Positions 2,458 through 10,766 of a stretch of DNA of 56,745 nucleotides are shown here, piece by piece. Origin of the DNA: Actinomycetes bacterium. GTDB lineage: Bacteria > Actinomycetota > Acidimicrobiia > Acidimicrobiales > Aldehydirespiratoraceae. The stretch is taken from positions 1-56,745 of the forward strand of contig JAJRXJ010000315.1 of assembly GCA_024276355.1 (NCBI GenBank), in the 5' to 3' direction. Under the pieces are notes generated by a model. It saw nothing but the letters and a program-made list of their open reading frames with translations, was not told the DNA's origin and did no database searches. A program made the position numbers and the translations under genes. Numbering within the stretch: the first letter of the stretch is position 1; every line of letters starts with the position of its first letter.

Positions 2458-3642
2458 TCAACCCAAGCGGAGCGTCTCGAGGGGTTCGAGCCGGGCGGCC
2501 TTGGTGGACGGATACAGGCCGGCCAAAACCGACACGCCGATTGCCGCGGCCACACCCATGAGCAGAAGTCCCGGGCGAAGGACCACCACCCAGCCGCGCG
2601 ACCTCGACACGAACGCCACCACCAGGGACCCCACCCCTGCACCTGCCATTCCGCCGAACAGGCCCACCACCACCGACTCGAGCATGAACTGTCCGGCAAT
2701 GAGGCCCCGACCGTGGCCCAGCGCCCGTCTGATCCCGATTTCGGATGAGCGCTGAATGACGGAAATCGACATCACGTTGGCGATACCGACCCCTCCGACG
2801 ACAAGAGCCAGGCCACCCATGAGCGCCACGATGGCCTGCAACGTGGTGTCGGCAGCAGCCGCCGATTCGAGCGCATCGGTGGGCACCGAGGTATTCACCT
2901 CCTCGTTTCCGCCGAGGTTGATCGCCACCGGTAGAGCCGCTTCGGTGACCAAGGTCTGGGACGGGTCTGATCGCACGTAGAGGGTGGTGGCCTCCAAGCC
3001 GGTGTCGAAATCCCTGTCGGCGGCTTGGGGGGAGATGACCACAGCGTTGTCGAGAGTGGGTTCGAGCACCACTCGATCCATGACCCCCACCACGCCGTAC
3101 TTGAAACCGCCGACCGAGATCGTGCGTTCGGTGCCGGGAATGTAGGCGAACTCATCGGCCAGTCCGGCACCGATCACCGCAGCCCGTCCGGCGGTCGACA
3201 CATCGAACGAGTTGATCCATCGGCCAGACACGAGGCCGACATCCATTACATCGAGGAAGGCCGAGTCGGCCGCGATCACGGGGATCGGAAATGCCGTGTA
3301 GTAACTGTCGGCCGCGGAGTAGGGGCTGGTGACGACACCAGCGATGTTGATCACCGCGGTCGCACTCTCAACGGTGGAAAGCGACTCGACCCTGACAACG
3401 ACGTCCTCGGGAAAGGTGGGATCCTGGGTGCCGAACGATCCGGCAGCCTCGGCCTTGATCAGGTTGGTACCGAGCTGCGAAAGGGTCTGTTGAAGGTCTC
3501 CCTTGGCCGACTCCGTGAGGCCGACCGCGGCGACGATCGCCGAGACGCCGATGATCGGTCCGAGCATGATCAGCAGGGTTCGTGTGAGCTTTGCGGTGAG
3601 GCCGCTGGACGCCACCCCCAACAAGTCCCGGATGTTGCTCAT
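2458..3642 (-). CDS. ABC transporter permease, MacB/FtsX family
   Basis: Start reassigned to ATG 3642 (ATGA overlap with the ATPase stop). N-terminal TM, extracellular domain, GGVGIANVMSISVIQRSSEIGIRRALG signature, C-terminal GLYPSTKAARLEPLETLR. Confidence 0.93.
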   Translation of the reverse strand: MSNIRDLLGVASSGLTAKLTRTLLIMLGPIIGVSAIVAAVGLTESAKGDLQQTLSQLGTNLIKAEAAGSFGTQDPTFPEDVVVRVESLSTVESATAVINIAGVVTSPYSAADSYYTAFPIPVIAADSAFLDVMDVGLVSGRWINSFDVSTAGRAAVIGAGLADEFAYIPGTERTISVGGFKYGVVGVMDRVVLEPTLDNAVVISPQAADRDFDTGLEATTLYVRSDPSQTLVTEAALPVAINLGGNEEVNTSVPTDALESAAAADTTLQAIVALMGGLALVVGGVGIANVMSISVIQRSSEIGIRRALGHGRGLIAGQFMLESVVVGLFGGMAGAGVGSLVVAFVSRSRGWVVVLRPGLLLMGVAAAIGVSVLAGLYPSTKAARLEPLETLRLG

Positions 3643-4403
3643 GACAGCGTGCCCGAGGTGGATGTGGCTGACGGATCGCCGAGCGTTCCGCCGAACGCCG
3701 AGCCGGCATCGCCGCGGCGGACGATTTCGTCGGCCACGATCTTGCCGTCTCGCATGGAGATTCGGCGCCCGGCTGACGCGGCCACCGCGGGGTCGTGGGT
3801 GACGATGGCCACCGCCCGTTCGGGAGAATGAAGGCCGCGAAAGATCTCCATGACGTTGGCGGCGTTGGTGGAATCGAGGGCCCCGGTCGGTTCGTCGGCG
3901 AGGATGAGAGCGGGGTCGGTGACGATGGCTCTGGCAATGGCGACACGCTGCTGTTCCCCGCCGGAGAGTTGTACCGGACGGTGGTCGGCTCGGTCGGCCA
4001 GACCGATCCTTTCCAGGGCGTTCATGGCCAGCCGGCGACGGGCGGAGGACGACAGCCCGCGGTAGAGCAGCGCCGTCTCCACGTTGCGTCGCGCGTCGAG
4101 GTAGGGGATGAGGTGGAACTGCTGGAAAACGAATCCCACCACATCGCCGCGTAGACGGGATCGCTCCGCATCCGTGAGCTCCGAAACCGCGGCGCCGGTG
4201 ACCCACAACTCACCGAGGGAAGGCAGGTCGAGCAAACCCAACAGACCCAGCATGGTGGACTTTCCGGATCCCGAGGGGCCGACGATCGAGACGAACTCTC
4301 CTGACTCGATAGTGAGCGACACCCCATCAAGGGCATGGACCTGGACCTCGTCGCCGTAGATGCGCGACACATTGTCGAGTCGGAGAAGGGGTTCAGCACT
4401 CAT
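3639..4403 (-). CDS. ABC transporter ATP-binding protein, LolD/MacB type
   Basis: Walker [31 protein letters not shown], Walker [13 protein letters not shown]-loop VTHD. Confidence 0.96.
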
Positions 4404-6604
4404 TGTCCGCCGGTGACGTCGACGATCACTACCTCTCCGCCGGTCAATCCGGACACGATTTCCGTGAACGACCCATCCTGCAGCCCCGTGACTATCTCGG
4501 TCGGGGTGACAATCCCGGTCTCAGGATCAACGACCCTCACGATGTCCTTGCCGGTGCCGTCCTGGGACACAGCGGCGCGCGGCACCACCAGGGCATCGAC
4601 ACGTTCGTCGAGAGTCACATCGATGGTCACGTTGGCACCGTCGACAGCGATGAGATCGTCGGACACACTGACGATGCCTTCGTAGGTTTCGCCACCGGAA
4701 CCGTTGACCGTGGCCACGTCATCGAGCTGGGAAATGAATCCGTCCGACTTCTGATTGCCGGCCTCGATGTCGACGGTGACCACCTGCCCGACGGACAGTT
4801 CGGAGCGGTCGGTCGGATTGGCGAACAGCTTGATGGTGAAATCGGGTTCGGTGAGGGTGAGAAGCTCCTGGCCGAGTTGCACGGTCTGGCCCTCGTCGAC
4901 GAACACGGTTCCGACACGCGCCGGCCACGATGCCACGATCATGTCGGAAGGCACGAATATGACGTCGTCGTCGATGGTGGTGATGATCACGTCGACGTGG
5001 GTGCGACCGGCCCTGAGGTTGACCGTGCCGGTCAGCACCTCGTAGTCGCTGCCCATGGTGGCGGTGCCCGAGATCGAGTAGTCGACCGACACGTCGGTGG
5101 ACGGTGCCTCGCTGGCCCTGACGCGAATGGCGACGGATCCGCCTTCCCCGACGGTTCCGCCTCCCTCGAGCGTGAGGGTGGGCTGATCGTCGTCCTCGAT
5201 GATGACGGTCGCCGATACGGAGTTGACGTCGAGGTCGTATTCGTTGTCGGGGTCGTTGCTGTCGATCAGGGTGAGAGTGAGTGACTCGTCGCTCTCGATG
5301 GCTTGGTCCTGGACCGTTGCGATCGAGATCGATGCCTGATCGCTTCCGGCCGGGAAGGTGAACACCGGGGCCGGATCCTGCTCGGCGTAGTCGTCGATTT
5401 CGGTGGCCGAACCGGCCAGCGAGTAGGAGACATCCAGGGCATGATCGATGACCACGTCGGACTTGAGCTTGTAGACGACGTTGGCACCCTCGGTTATCCG
5501 GTCGGCGCCCCGATCGAGGCTCAGCGACAGCAGAGGTACGACGTTGGGGGTGGTGTCGACGATCGTGACCGTCAGGGAGTTGAGAGGGGCCACGTCGTAG
5601 TTGATGCCGGCTCCGATCGGTTGATCCGGTGTGATGGTGATGGTCCAGTCCTCGTCGACCTCATCCACGGTGTCGGTGAAGGTCTCGAACGGCAGAGTGA
5701 GGGTGGTTGCACCGGCGGGCCACACAATCGGAGAGTTCTCGAGGGGATCGTTGCGATAGTCGACATCGATGTTGGGGTCGTCGATCGCCGCTTGGTCGCC
5801 TCCGGTGGCGGTTCCGGTGAAACCGAGGTTGATCTGCATGTCGGCGGGAGGGGCCGGATCGGCGGTGAGCACGATGTCGACGGTGTCGCCCTCATTCAAC
5901 GTGATCTCGGTGTCGCGTACGCCTATTGCCGGTATCGGGGTCGACTGAAACGGAATCAGGATGGCGCCGGTGCCAACCGTGGTGTTTTTCTCGCCGCCGA
6001 CTCTCTCCGGCACCGAGGGACCAATTTTCACGGCCGCGGTGTCCTTGTCGCCCACCGTGTACCCGTTGGACGGGCGCAACGACATCACCACCGTCTCGAC
6101 CGGCTCCGGCGTGGCTCCGCCGTAGCCGTAGTCGATCTGCCATTCGCGGAGCGCTGCCCGGGTGGCCTCGGTGTAGAGCCGATCCACGGTGCCGGGGTCG
6201 TAGCCGTTCTCCTGCAGTATCCGTTCGAGCTGCAGGACATCCGGGCCGTCGGATCCCACATCGAGCGTGCGGTAGAAAGAGAAATCACCGTTGACGGCCA
6301 CCGCCGGACGGCCGTCGAGAGACAACAGAACGTCGCCGGGGTTGACCTGATCGCCGTCGGAAACATCGACCTGGCTGACCCTCCCGTCGAACGGAGAGTT
6401 GACCTTCTGCAACTCCTCACGGCGCAGTTCGCCCGACACTGTGAGGGTGTCGGTGAGGGTTCGATGCCCGATGGTGTCGGTGAGGATCTCCCTGGGAGCG
6501 ACCTGTGGGTCGGACGTGCCGGTGGTCTGCCAAGCAATGACACCTCCGACGAACAGGGCCACCACCACCACGGCTGAGATCATCTGGCGACGGTTGATGG
6601 TCAT
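4400..6604 (-). CDS. Efflux adaptor (MFP-like) with peptidoglycan-binding domain and inserted Calx-beta domains
   Basis: Start at 6604 (ATGA overlap). N-terminal TM; lipoyl half GRVSQVDVSDGDQVNPGDVL; PG_binding_1 GSDGPDVLQLERILQENGY...TRAALREWQ; Calx-beta patterns EG..V...GTAT...DY; second lipoyl half; C-terminal ALVVPRAAV...TGLQDGSFTEIVSGLTGGE. Confidence 0.85.
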   Translation of the reverse strand: MTINRRQMISAVVVVALFVGGVIAWQTTGTSDPQVAPREILTDTIGHRTLTDTLTVSGELRREELQKVNSPFDGRVSQVDVSDGDQVNPGDVLLSLDGRPAVAVNGDFSFYRTLDVGSDGPDVLQLERILQENGYDPGTVDRLYTEATRAALREWQIDYGYGGATPEPVETVVMSLRPSNGYTVGDKDTAAVKIGPSVPERVGGEKNTTVGTGAILIPFQSTPIPAIGVRDTEITLNEGDTVDIVLTADPAPPADMQINLGFTGTATGGDQAAIDDPNIDVDYRNDPLENSPIVWPAGATTLTLPFETFTDTVDEVDEDWTITITPDQPIGAGINYDVAPLNSLTVTIVDTTPNVVPLLSLSLDRGADRITEGANVVYKLKSDVVIDHALDVSYSLAGSATEIDDYAEQDPAPVFTFPAGSDQASISIATVQDQAIESDESLTLTLIDSNDPDNEYDLDVNSVSATVIIEDDDQPTLTLEGGGTVGEGGSVAIRVRASEAPSTDVSVDYSISGTATMGSDYEVLTGTVNLRAGRTHVDVIITTIDDDVIFVPSDMIVASWPARVGTVFVDEGQTVQLGQELLTLTEPDFTIKLFANPTDRSELSVGQVVTVDIEAGNQKSDGFISQLDDVATVNGSGGETYEGIVSVSDDLIAVDGANVTIDVTLDERVDALVVPRAAVSQDGTGKDIVRVVDPETGIVTPTEIVTGLQDGSFTEIVSGLTGGEVVIVDVTGGQ

Positions 6605-7353
6605 GGGGATTCGCTTTCCACTTGTGCGACCGCAATGTCGCGGCATTCCTTCATGTCGTCCGACTCGAGGATCGACTGGCCCTGGGGAGGTGTCAGGTCC
6701 TGGGGGATCTGAAGCAGCCCCCTGGCGTCGGGCTTCAGATCACCGATCTTCCATCCGCGCCCCTTGAGACAGTCGGCCCACTGGACCAACCCCCGGTTGC
6801 GTCCCTCGATCTCGTCGGCCGGGATGTTGTCGCTGGCTGTCTGGAGCTTCTGGAAGGCCCCTTGGATCTGACTCACGGCGGCGCACTCGATCAGGTCGTT
6901 GATGTATTGGGAATCGTTGACGGGATCCTTGGGATCGCCGCCGGCCGTCGGTATTCCGATGAAGGCCGTCCCTTTGTCGGTGAGGCATCCGTTGAAAACC
7001 TTCATGGCCGCGAACAGGCCGTCGACGGGGTCGGAGGTGTCGGCGTTCAGGGGAATCGTGGTCGTGGCCGGTGGCGCGGTTGTCGTCGTGGACCGCGGCG
7101 AGTCGACCGGTGCTGACGCAGAGGCTCCCGAATCGGACTCCGGGGTTGAGGTGGTCGCGACGGTCGTGGTGGTGACCGTTGTGGTCGGATGGGCGAGATT
7201 CTCCGGCTTGATGCTGACCTGCTCAGCGTCGCGGTAGACGACAGCGGCGGTACTTGCTGTGGATGCTCCGCACGCAGCAGCAGCCAACATGATCACCATG
7301 GCGACAGCTGTCATGGCGAATGGTTGGGGCTTCACCGGGAGTCCTAGTGACAC
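6601..7353 (-). CDS. Lipoprotein with Thr-rich linker and two Cys-containing helical repeats
   Basis: Lipobox-like MLAAAAC-G; Thr/Ser/Pro linker; repeats FNGCLTDKG..IEC and WADCLKGRG..KEC. Start could be ATG 7314. Confidence 0.8.
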   Translation of the reverse strand: MSLGLPVKPQPFAMTAVAMVIMLAAAACGASTASTAAVVYRDAEQVSIKPENLAHPTTTVTTTTVATTSTPESDSGASASAPVDSPRSTTTTAPPATTTIPLNADTSDPVDGLFAAMKVFNGCLTDKGTAFIGIPTAGGDPKDPVNDSQYINDLIECAAVSQIQGAFQKLQTASDNIPADEIEGRNRGLVQWADCLKGRGWKIGDLKPDARGLLQIPQDLTPPQGQSILESDDMKECRDIAVAQVESESP

Positions 7354-7429: not shown

Positions 7430-8425
7430 TCATGCCCCCCCGAGGAGACTCCACACCGATCGCTGGGGATACCCGGATCCCGGGGACACGGAGATGCCTT
7501 GATGGGATGAACTGAACGCCGCGGCGGTGGCGATGTCGATCAACCCGGGGGCCAGGCTGAAGTCGGGCCACGGGGCGGCATCACCTCTGGCCATGGCCCC
7601 GAGCCTTTCGATCTGGGCCTTGAACCCCAGCTCGGTGTAGGGGTCGTCGGAATCGGCGATCATCACCGTTTCACCGTTCACCTCGAGCGTGGGTGGGGGA
7701 GCGAGCTCGAGTTGGACCACGGTGTCGTCGCTGGCGACTTCGAGGGAGGTGGAGGGGGAATCGTCACCCCAGGTGATGTCGACGGTGATGTCGCGGTGCA
7801 GAAGATTGTCGGTCCGGAGCTCGAGGCTGGCCCGAACGTCGATCCGTTCGGAATCTGCCGGTAGTTCAGCACAGACCGACACCACTGGCGCCCCGAGGGC
7901 AGCCAGCAGCAGGGGCATGATCCTGCATCCGGGGTCGATGACCGCTCCACCCCCGAATCTGGGGGTTCCGTGATCGCCCCAGTCGGGTCTGGGGCCGTGG
8001 CTCCGAAGCGCGAAGTGGAACGGTGAATCCATTGATGCGATCTCTTGGAGCGCCCGGCGTGTGATCGGAGCGTGCAGGAGGTTGGCGGCGGCCATCGTCG
8101 GTGGGAGAGCGGTGTCGGCGAGGGCATCGAGATCCGGTGTTGATGACCCGGAAGGGGTCTCGACAAGAACCGCCGATACCCGGCCGGCGACCGCCGCGAG
8201 CACTGACGGGGTGTCGGCAGGGGGCACGGCAACCACGACGGCCTCCGACTTGCCCAGTGCCTGCTCAAGCGTGAGTTCCGGTACCTCGGCCTGTGCCGCG
8301 AGCTCGGACGCCTTGCCGAGGTGTCTGCCGACAACTCCCTCCAACTCCACGTGTTCGGCGAGCAAGGCGGCCGCTGCGTGAAATGCGGCGGCACGTCCCG
8401 TACCGATGATCGAGATCGATGTCAT
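7430..8425 (-). CDS. Gfo/Idh/MocA-family oxidoreductase-like protein (divergent)
   Basis: Start reassigned to 8425. Rossmann start MTSISIIGTGRAA; VLVETP at the EKP position; FGGGAVID. Confidence 0.75.
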   Translation of the reverse strand: MTSISIIGTGRAAAFHAAAALLAEHVELEGVVGRHLGKASELAAQAEVPELTLEQALGKSEAVVVAVPPADTPSVLAAVAGRVSAVLVETPSGSSTPDLDALADTALPPTMAAANLLHAPITRRALQEIASMDSPFHFALRSHGPRPDWGDHGTPRFGGGAVIDPGCRIMPLLLAALGAPVVSVCAELPADSERIDVRASLELRTDNLLHRDITVDITWGDDSPSTSLEVASDDTVVQLELAPPPTLEVNGETVMIADSDDPYTELGFKAQIERLGAMARGDAAPWPDFSLAPGLIDIATAAAFSSSHQGISVSPGSGYPQRSVWSLLGGA

Positions 8426-8501
8426 GGGGCAATCGTGGCACGTCGAACGTCTCAAACCGACGACGGCAAATGAGGGAATATGGCAGGTACGGTTCAGGAC
8501 G

Positions 8502-10766
8502 GTGCGTGGAATAGTCAGACTCCTGCGCCTGGCCGCTGTGATAGCGGGTGGAGCGCTCGCGACTGTGGTGTCGCTGGCCGCGCTCGCACCCAGGGTAGGC
8601 GAGATCTTCACGGCGAATGTTTCCACTTCCGCCGAGGTCAATCTCGATCAGCTGGCACTTCGTTCCATCGTCTACGACGCCAACGGTGACCAGTTCGATG
8701 TTCTCTACGACGTCGAGAACCGTGCACTGGTGAAACTGCCGGACATCAGCCACGAGCTGATCACGTCGGTGGTCACCGTGGAGGATGCCGGTTTCTGGCA
8801 GCACAACGGGGTCGATGCGGCTGCCATCGCGCGGGCACTGGTGCGAAACGTCTCCGCCGGCGGAATCCAGCAGGGCGGGTCGACCATCACACAGCAGCTG
8901 ATCAAGAACGGGGTGGTGGGCAATGCCCGCAACCTCGACCGCAAGGTCCCTGAGGCCGCTCTGGCGATCCGTCTCGAACGTCAGTTGACAAAGCAGGAAA
9001 TCCTCGAGGCCTACCTCAACACGGTGTACTTCGGCGGCGGTACCTACGGGGTGAGAGCGGCGGCGGAGGTCTATTTCGGCGTTGAGCCGAGCGAACTCGA
9101 CTGGGGTCAGTCGGCCTTGCTGGCCAGCCTCATCTCCAATCCGGTGCAATACGACCCGACCAGATTCCCCGACGTGGCCCGCGAGCGGCGTCGTATCGCG
9201 CTGAAGCTGCTGCTGAACGCCGGAGACATCACCCAGGCCCAATTCGACAGATACAACGATTCGGATGTGCCATCCACCAGGAGAGTGGCCGTCCAGTGGC
9301 AGCCCTCCAATTACTTCATCGAGGAGGTGCGCAGTCAGCTTCTGGCCGACAAGCGACTGGGCGATACCAAGGCCGAGCGGGAAGAGGCGGTGTTCGGGGG
9401 TGGGTTGCGCGTGTTCACCACCTACGACCCGGTCGCCCAGGCACAGATCGAAAAGGCAATCGCCGACAACCTGCCCGACGACCCGCGTTTCTTCACGGCG
9501 GCCAGTGCGAGTGTGGAGCCGGGAACCGGGGCGGTCCGGGCCCTGGTCGGTGGACCAGGATTCGATCTGTTCAAGTACGACATTGCCACTCACCCGAATG
9601 GGCGTCCGACCGGTTCCGCCTTCAAGCCGTTCGTCTTGGCGGCCGCGATGGAGAAGGGGTTTGTTCCCGCCGACCAGGTGAGCGGACTCAGCCCGTGCGA
9701 GTTCGACAACCCCGGCGGCGACCCTGATCCATACGAGGCCTCCAACTTCGGTGGCGGCAAGGGTGCGTTCCAGGCGATCTACTCCCAAACTCTCGCATCA
9801 TCCAACTGTGCGTATCTTCGATTGGGTCAGATAGTGGGACTGTCCAATGTTGCCGACACCGCCCGAGCGCTCGGGATAAAGGCCGACATGTCCGAACTGC
9901 CCATGTCCATGCCGCTCGGCCCCCTCGAGATCACCCCACTCGAAATGGCCACGGCCTACGCAACCTTCGCCAACGACGGCGTCCATGTCGATCCGATCTT
10001 CATAACCCGGGTCGAAGATCGTTCCGGGAATGTTCTGTTCGAAAACGTTCCCCACCCCACCCGTGCCATCTCAACCCAGTCGGCGAGGCTGGTGACCAAT
10101 GTGTTGGCCGCCAACGTGAGGGGCGGAACCGGCACCAGGGCCCGGCTCGAATCGCAGCCGGCCGCCGGTAAGACCGGAACCGCACAGGACTTCGGCGACG
10201 CGTGGTTTGTGGGATTCACCCCCCGTCTGGCCACCGCGATCTGGATGGGCAACCCCGACGCCAGGGTGCCGATGCGACGAGTGGCAGGGGTCGGAAATGT
10301 CACCGGAGGTTCAATCCCGGCGCGAATCTGGGGCGCGTTCAACAACGCCTACCACGCGAACCGGCCCGTCATCGAGTTCAACAAGCCCGAGCCGACTCGC
10401 GCCGGAGTGATCCTGCGCACCGACTCCGACAACGTGAAGTACAAGGAGACGGCGAAGAGTCTCTGCGGCGACCCGGAGGCCGAGGTGGACACCGACGGTG
10501 ACGGTGTCGCCGACACTTGCGTCGACCCGCAGTTCGAGTTCGACCCGAACATCGGCATATGCCCGACATTGCTCGAGCCTGTCGATGAGGACGGCGACGG
10601 CAAGACCGATGGCTGTGTTCCGCCCACCACGACCACCACGACAACGACTACGGTCCCGGACGGTACCACTCCAACGACCACCGGCGGCGGTACAACAACA
10701 ACGACGACCACCACGCCACCATCCACCGGCACCACAATCCCCCCGCCGCCCACGACCGTGCCATGA
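8502..10766 (+). CDS. Class A penicillin-binding protein (transglycosylase/transpeptidase)
   Basis: EDAGFWQHNGVD, GGSTITQQLIKN, RKVPE, ILEAYLNTVYFG; SAFK, SSN, KTGT. Start GTG 8502 precedes the TM helix. Confidence 0.95.
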   Translation: MRGIVRLLRLAAVIAGGALATVVSLAALAPRVGEIFTANVSTSAEVNLDQLALRSIVYDANGDQFDVLYDVENRALVKLPDISHELITSVVTVEDAGFWQHNGVDAAAIARALVRNVSAGGIQQGGSTITQQLIKNGVVGNARNLDRKVPEAALAIRLERQLTKQEILEAYLNTVYFGGGTYGVRAAAEVYFGVEPSELDWGQSALLASLISNPVQYDPTRFPDVARERRRIALKLLLNAGDITQAQFDRYNDSDVPSTRRVAVQWQPSNYFIEEVRSQLLADKRLGDTKAEREEAVFGGGLRVFTTYDPVAQAQIEKAIADNLPDDPRFFTAASASVEPGTGAVRALVGGPGFDLFKYDIATHPNGRPTGSAFKPFVLAAAMEKGFVPADQVSGLSPCEFDNPGGDPDPYEASNFGGGKGAFQAIYSQTLASSNCAYLRLGQIVGLSNVADTARALGIKADMSELPMSMPLGPLEITPLEMATAYATFANDGVHVDPIFITRVEDRSGNVLFENVPHPTRAISTQSARLVTNVLAANVRGGTGTRARLESQPAAGKTGTAQDFGDAWFVGFTPRLATAIWMGNPDARVPMRRVAGVGNVTGGSIPARIWGAFNNAYHANRPVIEFNKPEPTRAGVILRTDSDNVKYKETAKSLCGDPEAEVDTDGDGVADTCVDPQFEFDPNIGICPTLLEPVDEDGDGKTDGCVPPTTTTTTTTTVPDGTTPTTTGGGTTTTTTTTPPSTGTTIPPPPTTVP

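Follow-up and report, generated by a model that had tools for sequence, protein, structure and literature searches.

In Gram-negative bacteria, the membrane-fusion adaptors of export systems carry an alpha-helical hairpin that docks onto TolC; an outer-membrane exit duct of the TolC type is not expected as a partner in a single-membrane actinobacterium. MacB-type adaptors are also known in Gram-positive bacteria, and purified YknX binds peptidoglycan, according to PMC5985334. The role of such adaptors in bacteria without an outer membrane is unsettled, and the family considered here offers a concrete and widespread case. Its representative is the adaptor gene at 4400..6646 on the minus strand of contig JAJRXJ010000315.1 (assembly GCA_024276355.1), from an actinobacterium of the order Acidimicrobiales; the window is the whole stretch analysed, 56,745 nucleotides long, and all features below lie on its minus strand unless marked otherwise. 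The product, 748 amino acids (aa) from the first ATG, shares an N-terminal membrane helix, a split lipoyl domain, a beta-barrel and membrane-proximal domains with MacA, YknX and the MacA-like protein of S. pneumoniae, and its gene shares an operon with an ATP-binding cassette (ABC) ATPase and a permease with MacB_PCD and FtsX domains, as in MacA-type systems. Foldseek matches the adaptor model to MacA (5nik_D, 4dk0, and 9qgy_G), AcrA, and MexA at E 1e-7 to 1e-9, as well as to CusB and BesA. The adaptor differs from the MacA type in having no coiled-coil alpha-hairpin between aa 119 and 564 of the model (DSSP assignment), where the only helices (aa 135-146 and 160-172) belong to a peptidoglycan-binding (PG) domain; the hairpin position is taken by this PG_binding_1 domain and a 383-aa acidic cassette of Calx-beta sequence, whose first and last pieces are probably parts of one divided domain. 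BesA of Borrelia (4kku, 4kkt, and 4kks), among the best Foldseek matches (E 1.8e-8, TMt 0.51), is also hairpin-less, but there the hairpin is simply lacking, whereas in the adaptor described here a wall-binding domain and a loop of repeats stand in its place.

The closest described relatives of the repeats themselves are the calcium-binding domains (CBD) CBD1 and CBD2 of the exchangers NCX1 and CALX (2dpk, 2fws, 3us9, and 3rb5), with which they share sequence, fold family, and conserved acidic motifs of putative calcium-ligand type (DY, DDD, and E..E). In a seven-stranded sandwich of this general topology, one pole bears the E-F loop together with the C-terminus, and the opposite pole bears the N-terminus. 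The placement of the calcium sites in PMC3386913 is consistent with this layout; the same source reports that calcium rigidifies the CBD1-CBD2 tandem at its junction (PMC3386913), which the EDDD end of the second repeat of the cassette resembles. In contrast to NCX1 and CALX, one domain here is cut in the E-F loop and runs in the order F-G ... A-E, with whole domains nested between its old termini.

The cassette occupies aa 181-563 (4958-6106). It begins with strands F and G (aa 181-208; 6023..6106), continues through a variable linker of 31 aa (aa 209-239; 5930..6022) and two complete Calx-beta repeats (repeat 1, aa 240-366, 5549..5929; repeat 2, aa 368-488, 5183..5545), and ends with strands A to E only (aa 489-563; 4958..5182), which stop at IDDDVI and abut the second lipoyl half. 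In the whole adaptor, Pfam matches Calx-beta (PF03160) with 45.5 bits over two stretches (gathering threshold 27 bits). When slices are scanned, repeat 2 (aa 370-492) covers profile positions 36-119 of 119 with 32.1 bits, and the last repeat (aa 485-570) covers positions 3-84 only, with 27.9 bits; because the match ends there, the last repeat lacks the final two strands. Three Calx-beta domains in simple tandem can be excluded, since the last one is without profile positions 85-119. Repeat 1 has no Pfam Calx-beta match on its own and carries an 11-residue insertion before the DY motif, but its profile matches that of repeat 2 from end to end (hhalign probability 99.4%, E 8e-22, 113 columns), which identifies it as a divergent Calx-beta repeat.

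The missing strands were located by comparing profiles. An alignment of 69 homologues was cut into segments, and the segments were compared with hhalign. Of the 121 columns of repeat 2, the F-G piece (aa 176-212) matches 80-119 (94.1%, E 1.3e-7) and the A-E piece matches 4-83 (99.1%); of the 127 columns of repeat 1, the F-G piece matches 87-126 (76.5%). As controls, the PG domain and the second lipoyl half score 0.1% and 0.9% against repeat 2, and the F-G piece scores 1.7% against the A-E piece. Given these column matches and the low control scores, the two pieces complement each other exactly within one Calx-beta profile, to a degree well above chance. The contiguous A-to-G strand order found in repeats 1 and 2 is thus broken in the domain at the base of the cassette, whose F-G equivalent lies 280 residues upstream of its A-E part. 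None of the 69 sequences varies at eight residues of the F-G region (G176, G177, P180, E181, E184, G195, Y196, and P210). The preliminary description, made from the sequence alone, had proposed an acidic insert of about 380 aa between the PG-binding domain and the second lipoyl half, with two complete Calx-beta-like repeats, a third repeat (5182-4961) without its last two strands, and the missing piece at the start of the insert (6106-6023). This anatomy is confirmed on every point, the acidity by 67 aspartate and glutamate residues, 15 lysine and arginine residues, and a pI of 4.05 over 383 aa, and the membership of the repeats in the Calx-beta family by Pfam, hhalign, and phmmer matches.

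Structure models point to pairing of the two pieces. In the full-length AlphaFold2 model (mean predicted local distance difference test score, pLDDT, 78.3; predicted template modelling score, pTM, 0.38), the F-G piece forms strands at aa 184-191 and 203-208, with block pLDDT values of 81, 90, and 80, and its flanks at aa 176-180 and 211-237, the latter within the linker, fall below 50. For a co-fold, aa 485-566 and aa 176-212 were supplied as two chains, both as slices of the family alignment. The interface score (ipSAE) is 0.61 in three of three runs, compared with 0.03 for the best of three controls; the runs agree in at least 96% of contacts, with a partner pLDDT of 72-73. Of solved complexes, 116 of 157 reach the mark of the co-fold tool, as do 2 of 215 mismatched pairs; these rates apply only roughly here because the family's own alignment was used. 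In the closest contacts, strand F (185-191) lies on strand C (522-528) and strand G (197-204) on strand A (490-493), which is the canonical sheet pairing of Calx-beta domains. The pLDDT of the A-E piece is 77 with its F-G partner and drops to 60-64 when the partner is replaced. That the ends of the insert fold together into one permuted domain, as proposed earlier, is supported by these scores; the N-terminal segment is predicted neither to be disordered nor to pack elsewhere, its strands standing at pLDDT 80-90 in the full-length model and docking on the A-E piece in the co-fold. On these models, the two pieces probably make up a single split, circularly permuted Calx-beta domain of seven strands.

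Relatives retain the division. Searched by phmmer with aa 1-215, a set of 1.84 billion cluster representatives yielded 5124 matches at E <= 0.001, of which the best 150 were considered, and hidden Markov models (HMMs) of the segments were scanned over 270 collected proteins. Both landmarks, the PG domain and the second lipoyl half, are present in 147 of the 270; the other 123, fragments or PG-repeat proteins that are not adaptors, were dropped. Calx-beta repeats occur in 138 of the 147; in all 138 the F-G piece follows the PG domain directly, and the last repeat is truncated and borders on the lipoyl half. The remaining nine are PG-only adaptors of Actinomycetota, about 350 aa long (such as P0194, P0201, and P0217), which share the adaptor core, carry a single PG_binding_1 domain inserted at the same place in the lipoyl tip, and differ in having no Calx-beta repeats and neither split piece (0 of 9). 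Both pieces are kept whatever the number of inner repeats, which by the family's own HMMs is one in 2 proteins, two in 121, three in 6, four in 3, five in 5, and eleven in a single protein of 1705 aa (P0139). At the level of species genomes, every one of the 72 loci with an intact frame has the order F-G, two repeats, and truncated last repeat; the other 8 of the 80 loci were incomplete and were left out. An assembly chimera was considered and is ruled out by the recurrence of this order in all 72. The linker is 17-109 aa long in relatives, the 109 aa occurring in one two-repeat locus; in proteins with three to eleven repeats it measures 17-55 aa and does not grow with repeat number.

A quick IQ-TREE phylogeny of the C-terminal adaptor part only, with 32 framed representatives and 7 PG-only adaptors as outgroup, places the framed adaptors on one side of a branch (Shimodaira-Hasegawa-like approximate likelihood ratio test, SH-aLRT, 99) and the PG-only adaptors on the other. 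Among the 32 framed representatives, inner repeat number has changed at least ten times. Because the framed group sits on one branch and repeat number has changed so often, the split frame is, on this tree, old and fixed, and its content expands and contracts. Three relatives, P0132 (aa 193-635), P0136 (aa 308-601), and P0146 (aa 308-477), hold 160-440 aa inside the frame that receive no assignment from the repeat HMMs or Pfam; these stretches may represent another kind of inserted module or repeats that have diverged very far. A fixed frame with a variable repeat number is useful for studies of protein evolution and for insertion engineering.

The position of the cut can be read against NCX1, whose residues are numbered here as in PMC3386913. 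With the A-E piece, phmmer finds NCX1 CBD1 (2dpk residues 31-93; E 6e-6) and sets the IDDDVI end opposite IDDDIF, so that D534 corresponds to D421; D559, D560, and D561 correspond to D446, D447, and D448; and V562 corresponds to I449. The calcium ligands of NCX1 CBD1 named in that source are E385, D421, D446, D447, I449, E451, D498, D499, and D500, with E454 at the Ca1 site (PMC3386913). Residues E181 and E184 of the F-G piece correspond to E451 and E454 by two steps, from F-G to repeat 2 and from repeat 2 to CALX CBD1, the second of which, onto EEDE of CALX CBD1, is a weak match (E 0.1); the equivalent of E385 is E501, off by one residue in the alignment count. The chain leaves the sandwich after DDDVI and enters it at PEPVET, placing the cut inside the DDD..E..E ligand loop. 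The preliminary description had the domain opened at its acidic calcium-binding loop, and the break does fall within this motif in the hhalign and NCX1/CALX alignments. Because the cut lies inside the ligand motif, the putative ligand residues come from both halves.

These putative ligands are highly conserved: E181, E184, E501, D534, and D559-561 are invariant in 69 of 69 sequences, and E181, E184, E501, D534, D560, and D561 are kept in 201 of 210 family sequences. E181 is replaced in 7 of the 210, and E501 and D560 are replaced there too. The clade with replaced ligands (P0143, P0151, P0159, P0166, P0171, P0172, and P0185) has, for instance, QQADNRN instead of EEEDDDD and retains the split, and provides a natural calcium-free comparison set.

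Several observations weigh against a permuted domain with a role for calcium. The F-G piece alone, 41 aa in length, matches no Pfam family at E <= 10, and phmmer against the PDB returns for it a chance alphaRep match only (E 1.4); the piece is so short that only profile-profile comparison is informative. In the full-length model, pairing is deduced from pLDDT alone, at a pTM of 0.38, and the co-fold may partly reflect the predictor's memory of Calx-beta folds; being made with two chains, it also cannot separate intrachain from interchain pairing. Covariation between the two pieces, scored as mutual information with average product correction (MI-APC) in 98 non-redundant sequences (<90% identity), shows no enrichment: the 25 predicted strand contacts have a median rank of 1520 of 2812, and 3 of the top 30 pairs lie near a contact, compared with a background of 3.7%. 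The joint replacement of ligands across the two halves traces to about one clade and to as few as two changes, and it is weak as independent evidence because the seven sequences are essentially one clade. Since this clade of seven representatives lost the ligands and kept the split, calcium, as judged from these sequences, cannot be essential for the frame. Finally, the split domain, which is extracellular and bacterial, differs from NCX1 CBD1 in lacking the acidic triplet after strand G (D498-D500 in NCX1; VKIGPSVP here), so that high-affinity calcium sites would be incomplete; an equivalent of the triplet is present after repeat 2 (EDDD). The loss of ligands in one clade and the missing triplet both count against a strict need for calcium in the hinge or stalk that the preliminary description put forward as a possibility. 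With these points taken into account, the explanation as a whole, namely a permuted Calx-beta frame, a closed loop of beads, and a wall-directed module on a MacB-type adaptor, is given a probability of about 0.75.

In the proposed architecture, a MacB-type ABC unit of single-membrane marine and freshwater Acidimicrobiia would have exchanged the TolC-docking alpha-hairpin at the lipoyl tip for a wall-directed module made of the PG-binding domain and an acidic Calx-beta chain. This bead chain would be framed by one split Calx-beta domain, with F-G first (aa 181-208) and A-E last (aa 489-563). A cut at the E-F loop leaves two neighbouring chain ends, which would suit insertion at the lipoyl tip; the start and end of the cassette would lie side by side at the E-F pole, allowing a long repeat array to be plugged into a tight lipoyl loop. 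The old N- and C-termini of the split sandwich would be joined via the linker and the complete repeats, two here and 1-11 in relatives. Because the linker, 31 aa here, is far too short to accompany a straight rod, the bead chain would have to fold back into a closed loop. At the calcium concentration of seawater, the composite site would, most likely, act as a staple on the clasp and make the junctions between beads more rigid. The odds are about even that the cassette forms a collar or anchor directed at the wall, with calcium lending stiffness to the junctions between beads and probably to the clasp as well; such a collar, anchored in the wall or spanning it, would surround an export or mechanotransmission unit. 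A stronger version is quite unlikely: the calcium-stapled clasp would close 1-11 beads into a loop on each protomer, or link chains into a chain-mail collar, and the MacB motor would be tethered to peptidoglycan and held open through it. If that version were true, it would be a solution to crossing the wall without counterpart in known efflux or secretion machines, and a natural domain split serving as a generic plug for repeat arrays within another domain.

A different function for the cassette is a tentative possibility and rather less likely: it would mainly bind a ligand or partner, such as the upstream lipoprotein, a wall polymer, or a substrate, and the split would merely permit insertion. 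The strong acidity of the repeats fits such a binding module, as does the adjacent gene for a lipoprotein-like protein of 250 aa (6601..7353), the first of the four-gene cluster, which lies upstream of the adaptor in 76 of 80 related loci (the other four have no upstream DNA) and is probably coupled to it in translation. Repeat number varies widely in surface-binding proteins as well, but this variation is more easily reconciled with a spacer or loop than with a specific binding site, and no fold or family can be recognised for the lipoprotein-like protein. Its sequence comprises a conserved lipobox cysteine (C28), a linker rich in Thr and Pro, and, at the C-terminus, a helical domain of roughly 140 aa that contains four further invariant cysteines (C123, C157, C195, and C237). 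Its AlphaFold2 model is helical, with pLDDT above 90 over aa 109-250. A Pfam scan assigns it no family, Foldseek against the PDB gives no match at E <= 0.001, the best VIA-align hit (Z 5.6, to helical segments) is inside the noise range for helical models, and the protein atlas places it in unnamed Actinomycetota clusters only. It could be a partner or a substrate of the pump.

If the two pieces do pair, they may do so between protomers. The F-G piece of one protomer would then complete the A-E piece of its neighbour, and the split domain would act as an oligomerisation clasp, stringing the protomers, presumably six, together into a ring. In known adaptor hexamers, such as those of MacA and AcrA, neighbouring protomers are close together at the lipoyl tip, and both pieces lie within about 5-8 residues of the domains there. 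The co-fold passed with two separate chains, which makes complementation between chains structurally possible, and retention of the split where calcium ligands have been lost fits a role in structure or assembly. Nothing, however, sets interchain apart from intrachain pairing. The pLDDT of 80-90 for the hairpin in a monomer model suggests a partner in its own chain, and with a short connection on either side, pairing with the closest available partner, in the same chain, is favoured. Interchain pairing is judged unlikely. It is extremely unlikely that the F-G segment is the decayed remnant of a lost repeat, with the last repeat stable as five strands or completed by strands of the lipoyl domain: the segment has no Pfam or PDB sequence match of its own and covariation lends its strand contacts no support, but it is among the most conserved parts of the protein, co-occurs with the truncated repeat in all 138 repeat-bearing proteins across 1-11 inner repeats, and is tied to it by the profile match (94%) and a controlled co-fold.

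The permuted frame has parallels in other folds. Circular permutation can arise by duplication and truncation, and C2 domains are calcium-binding beta-sandwiches that exist in two permuted topologies. By the same logic, a piece cut out of a tandem array so as to start and end in the middle of a domain would give F-G, n repeats, and A-E. The present case differs from the permuted C2 domains in that the old termini are bridged by 1-11 whole domains and the new termini are the insertion point in another domain. It is a clean natural case of circular permutation joining the ends of a long insert. A literature search, in which most subscription journals were not covered, found no description of a permuted Calx-beta domain or of this adaptor architecture, and the database names of relatives are 'Calx-beta domain-containing protein' or 'AcrA (membrane-fusion protein)' only. 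By domain assignment, the adaptor belongs to a known adaptor family and its repeats to Calx-beta; loss of the hairpin and the non-contiguous basal domain set it apart.

The remainder of the adaptor is conventional in layout. An N-terminal membrane helix (aa 20-37; 6536..6589) is assigned from DSSP helix in the AlphaFold2 model and hydrophobic sequence. The first half of the lipoyl domain (aa 80-111; 6314..6409) matches Biotin_lipoyl_2 with 52.8 bits (cut-off 29.8), and the PG-binding domain (aa 125-175; 6122..6274) matches PG_binding_1 (PF01471) at aa 134-174 with 31.2 bits (gathering threshold 23). The second lipoyl half, beta-barrel, and membrane-proximal domains (aa 564-748; 4403..4957) are supported by HlyD_3 at aa 570-664 (43.1 bits, cut-off 22.2) and by Foldseek; the best NCBIfam model over aa 577-743 is TIGR01730, a subfamily of resistance-nodulation-division (RND) membrane-fusion protein (MFP) adaptors, at 76.7 bits, which is below its cut-off of 94.9. 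A split lipoyl domain followed by beta-barrel and membrane-proximal domains, as found by Pfam and Foldseek, is what defines HlyD/MFP adaptors. Other Actinomycetota adaptors have one to four PG_binding_1 domains at the hairpin site, P0207, P0215, and P0233 having 2 to 4 in tandem at the same lipoyl-tip position; across Actinomycetota, wall-binding inserts appear to favour this site in general.

Downstream of the adaptor lie an ABC ATPase (3639..4403; Pfam ABC_tran, 106.9 bits), which follows it directly, and a MacB-type permease (2458..3642; MacB_PCD, 76 bits; FtsX, 57.1 bits). An ATPase adjacent to a MacB_PCD/FtsX permease characterises MacB-type (type VII) ABC systems, and by its predicted domains and neighbours the adaptor is of the MacA/YknX type, within a four-gene MacB-type system. 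Stop and start codons overlap as ATGA at all three junctions of the cluster (6601-6604, 4400-4403, and 3639-3642), which suggests translational coupling of the four genes. Because the ATG of M15, at 6604, overlaps the stop codon of the upstream gene in this way, M15 is probably the true adaptor start, giving a protein of 734 aa; homologues are 726-738 aa long. The same four-gene order recurs in related genomes (80 loci): the ATPase is found downstream in 70 of the 80, the other 10 stopping at the adaptor, and the permease in 68, the rest being cut by contig ends at or just after the adaptor gene.

Relatives occur in 94 species-level genomes. The records are nearly all metagenome-assembled genomes, labelled Acidimicrobiales, Acidimicrobiaceae, Microthrix, Ilumatobacteraceae, MedAcidi, or Actinomycetota. 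An open reading frame of 786 aa (8406-10766, +), at a distance of about 1.7 kb from the cluster and on the other strand, encodes, in translation, a glycosyltransferase motif of the GGSTITQQ type and a penicillin-binding-like region followed by a Thr/Pro-rich tail; we take its product to resemble a class A penicillin-binding protein.

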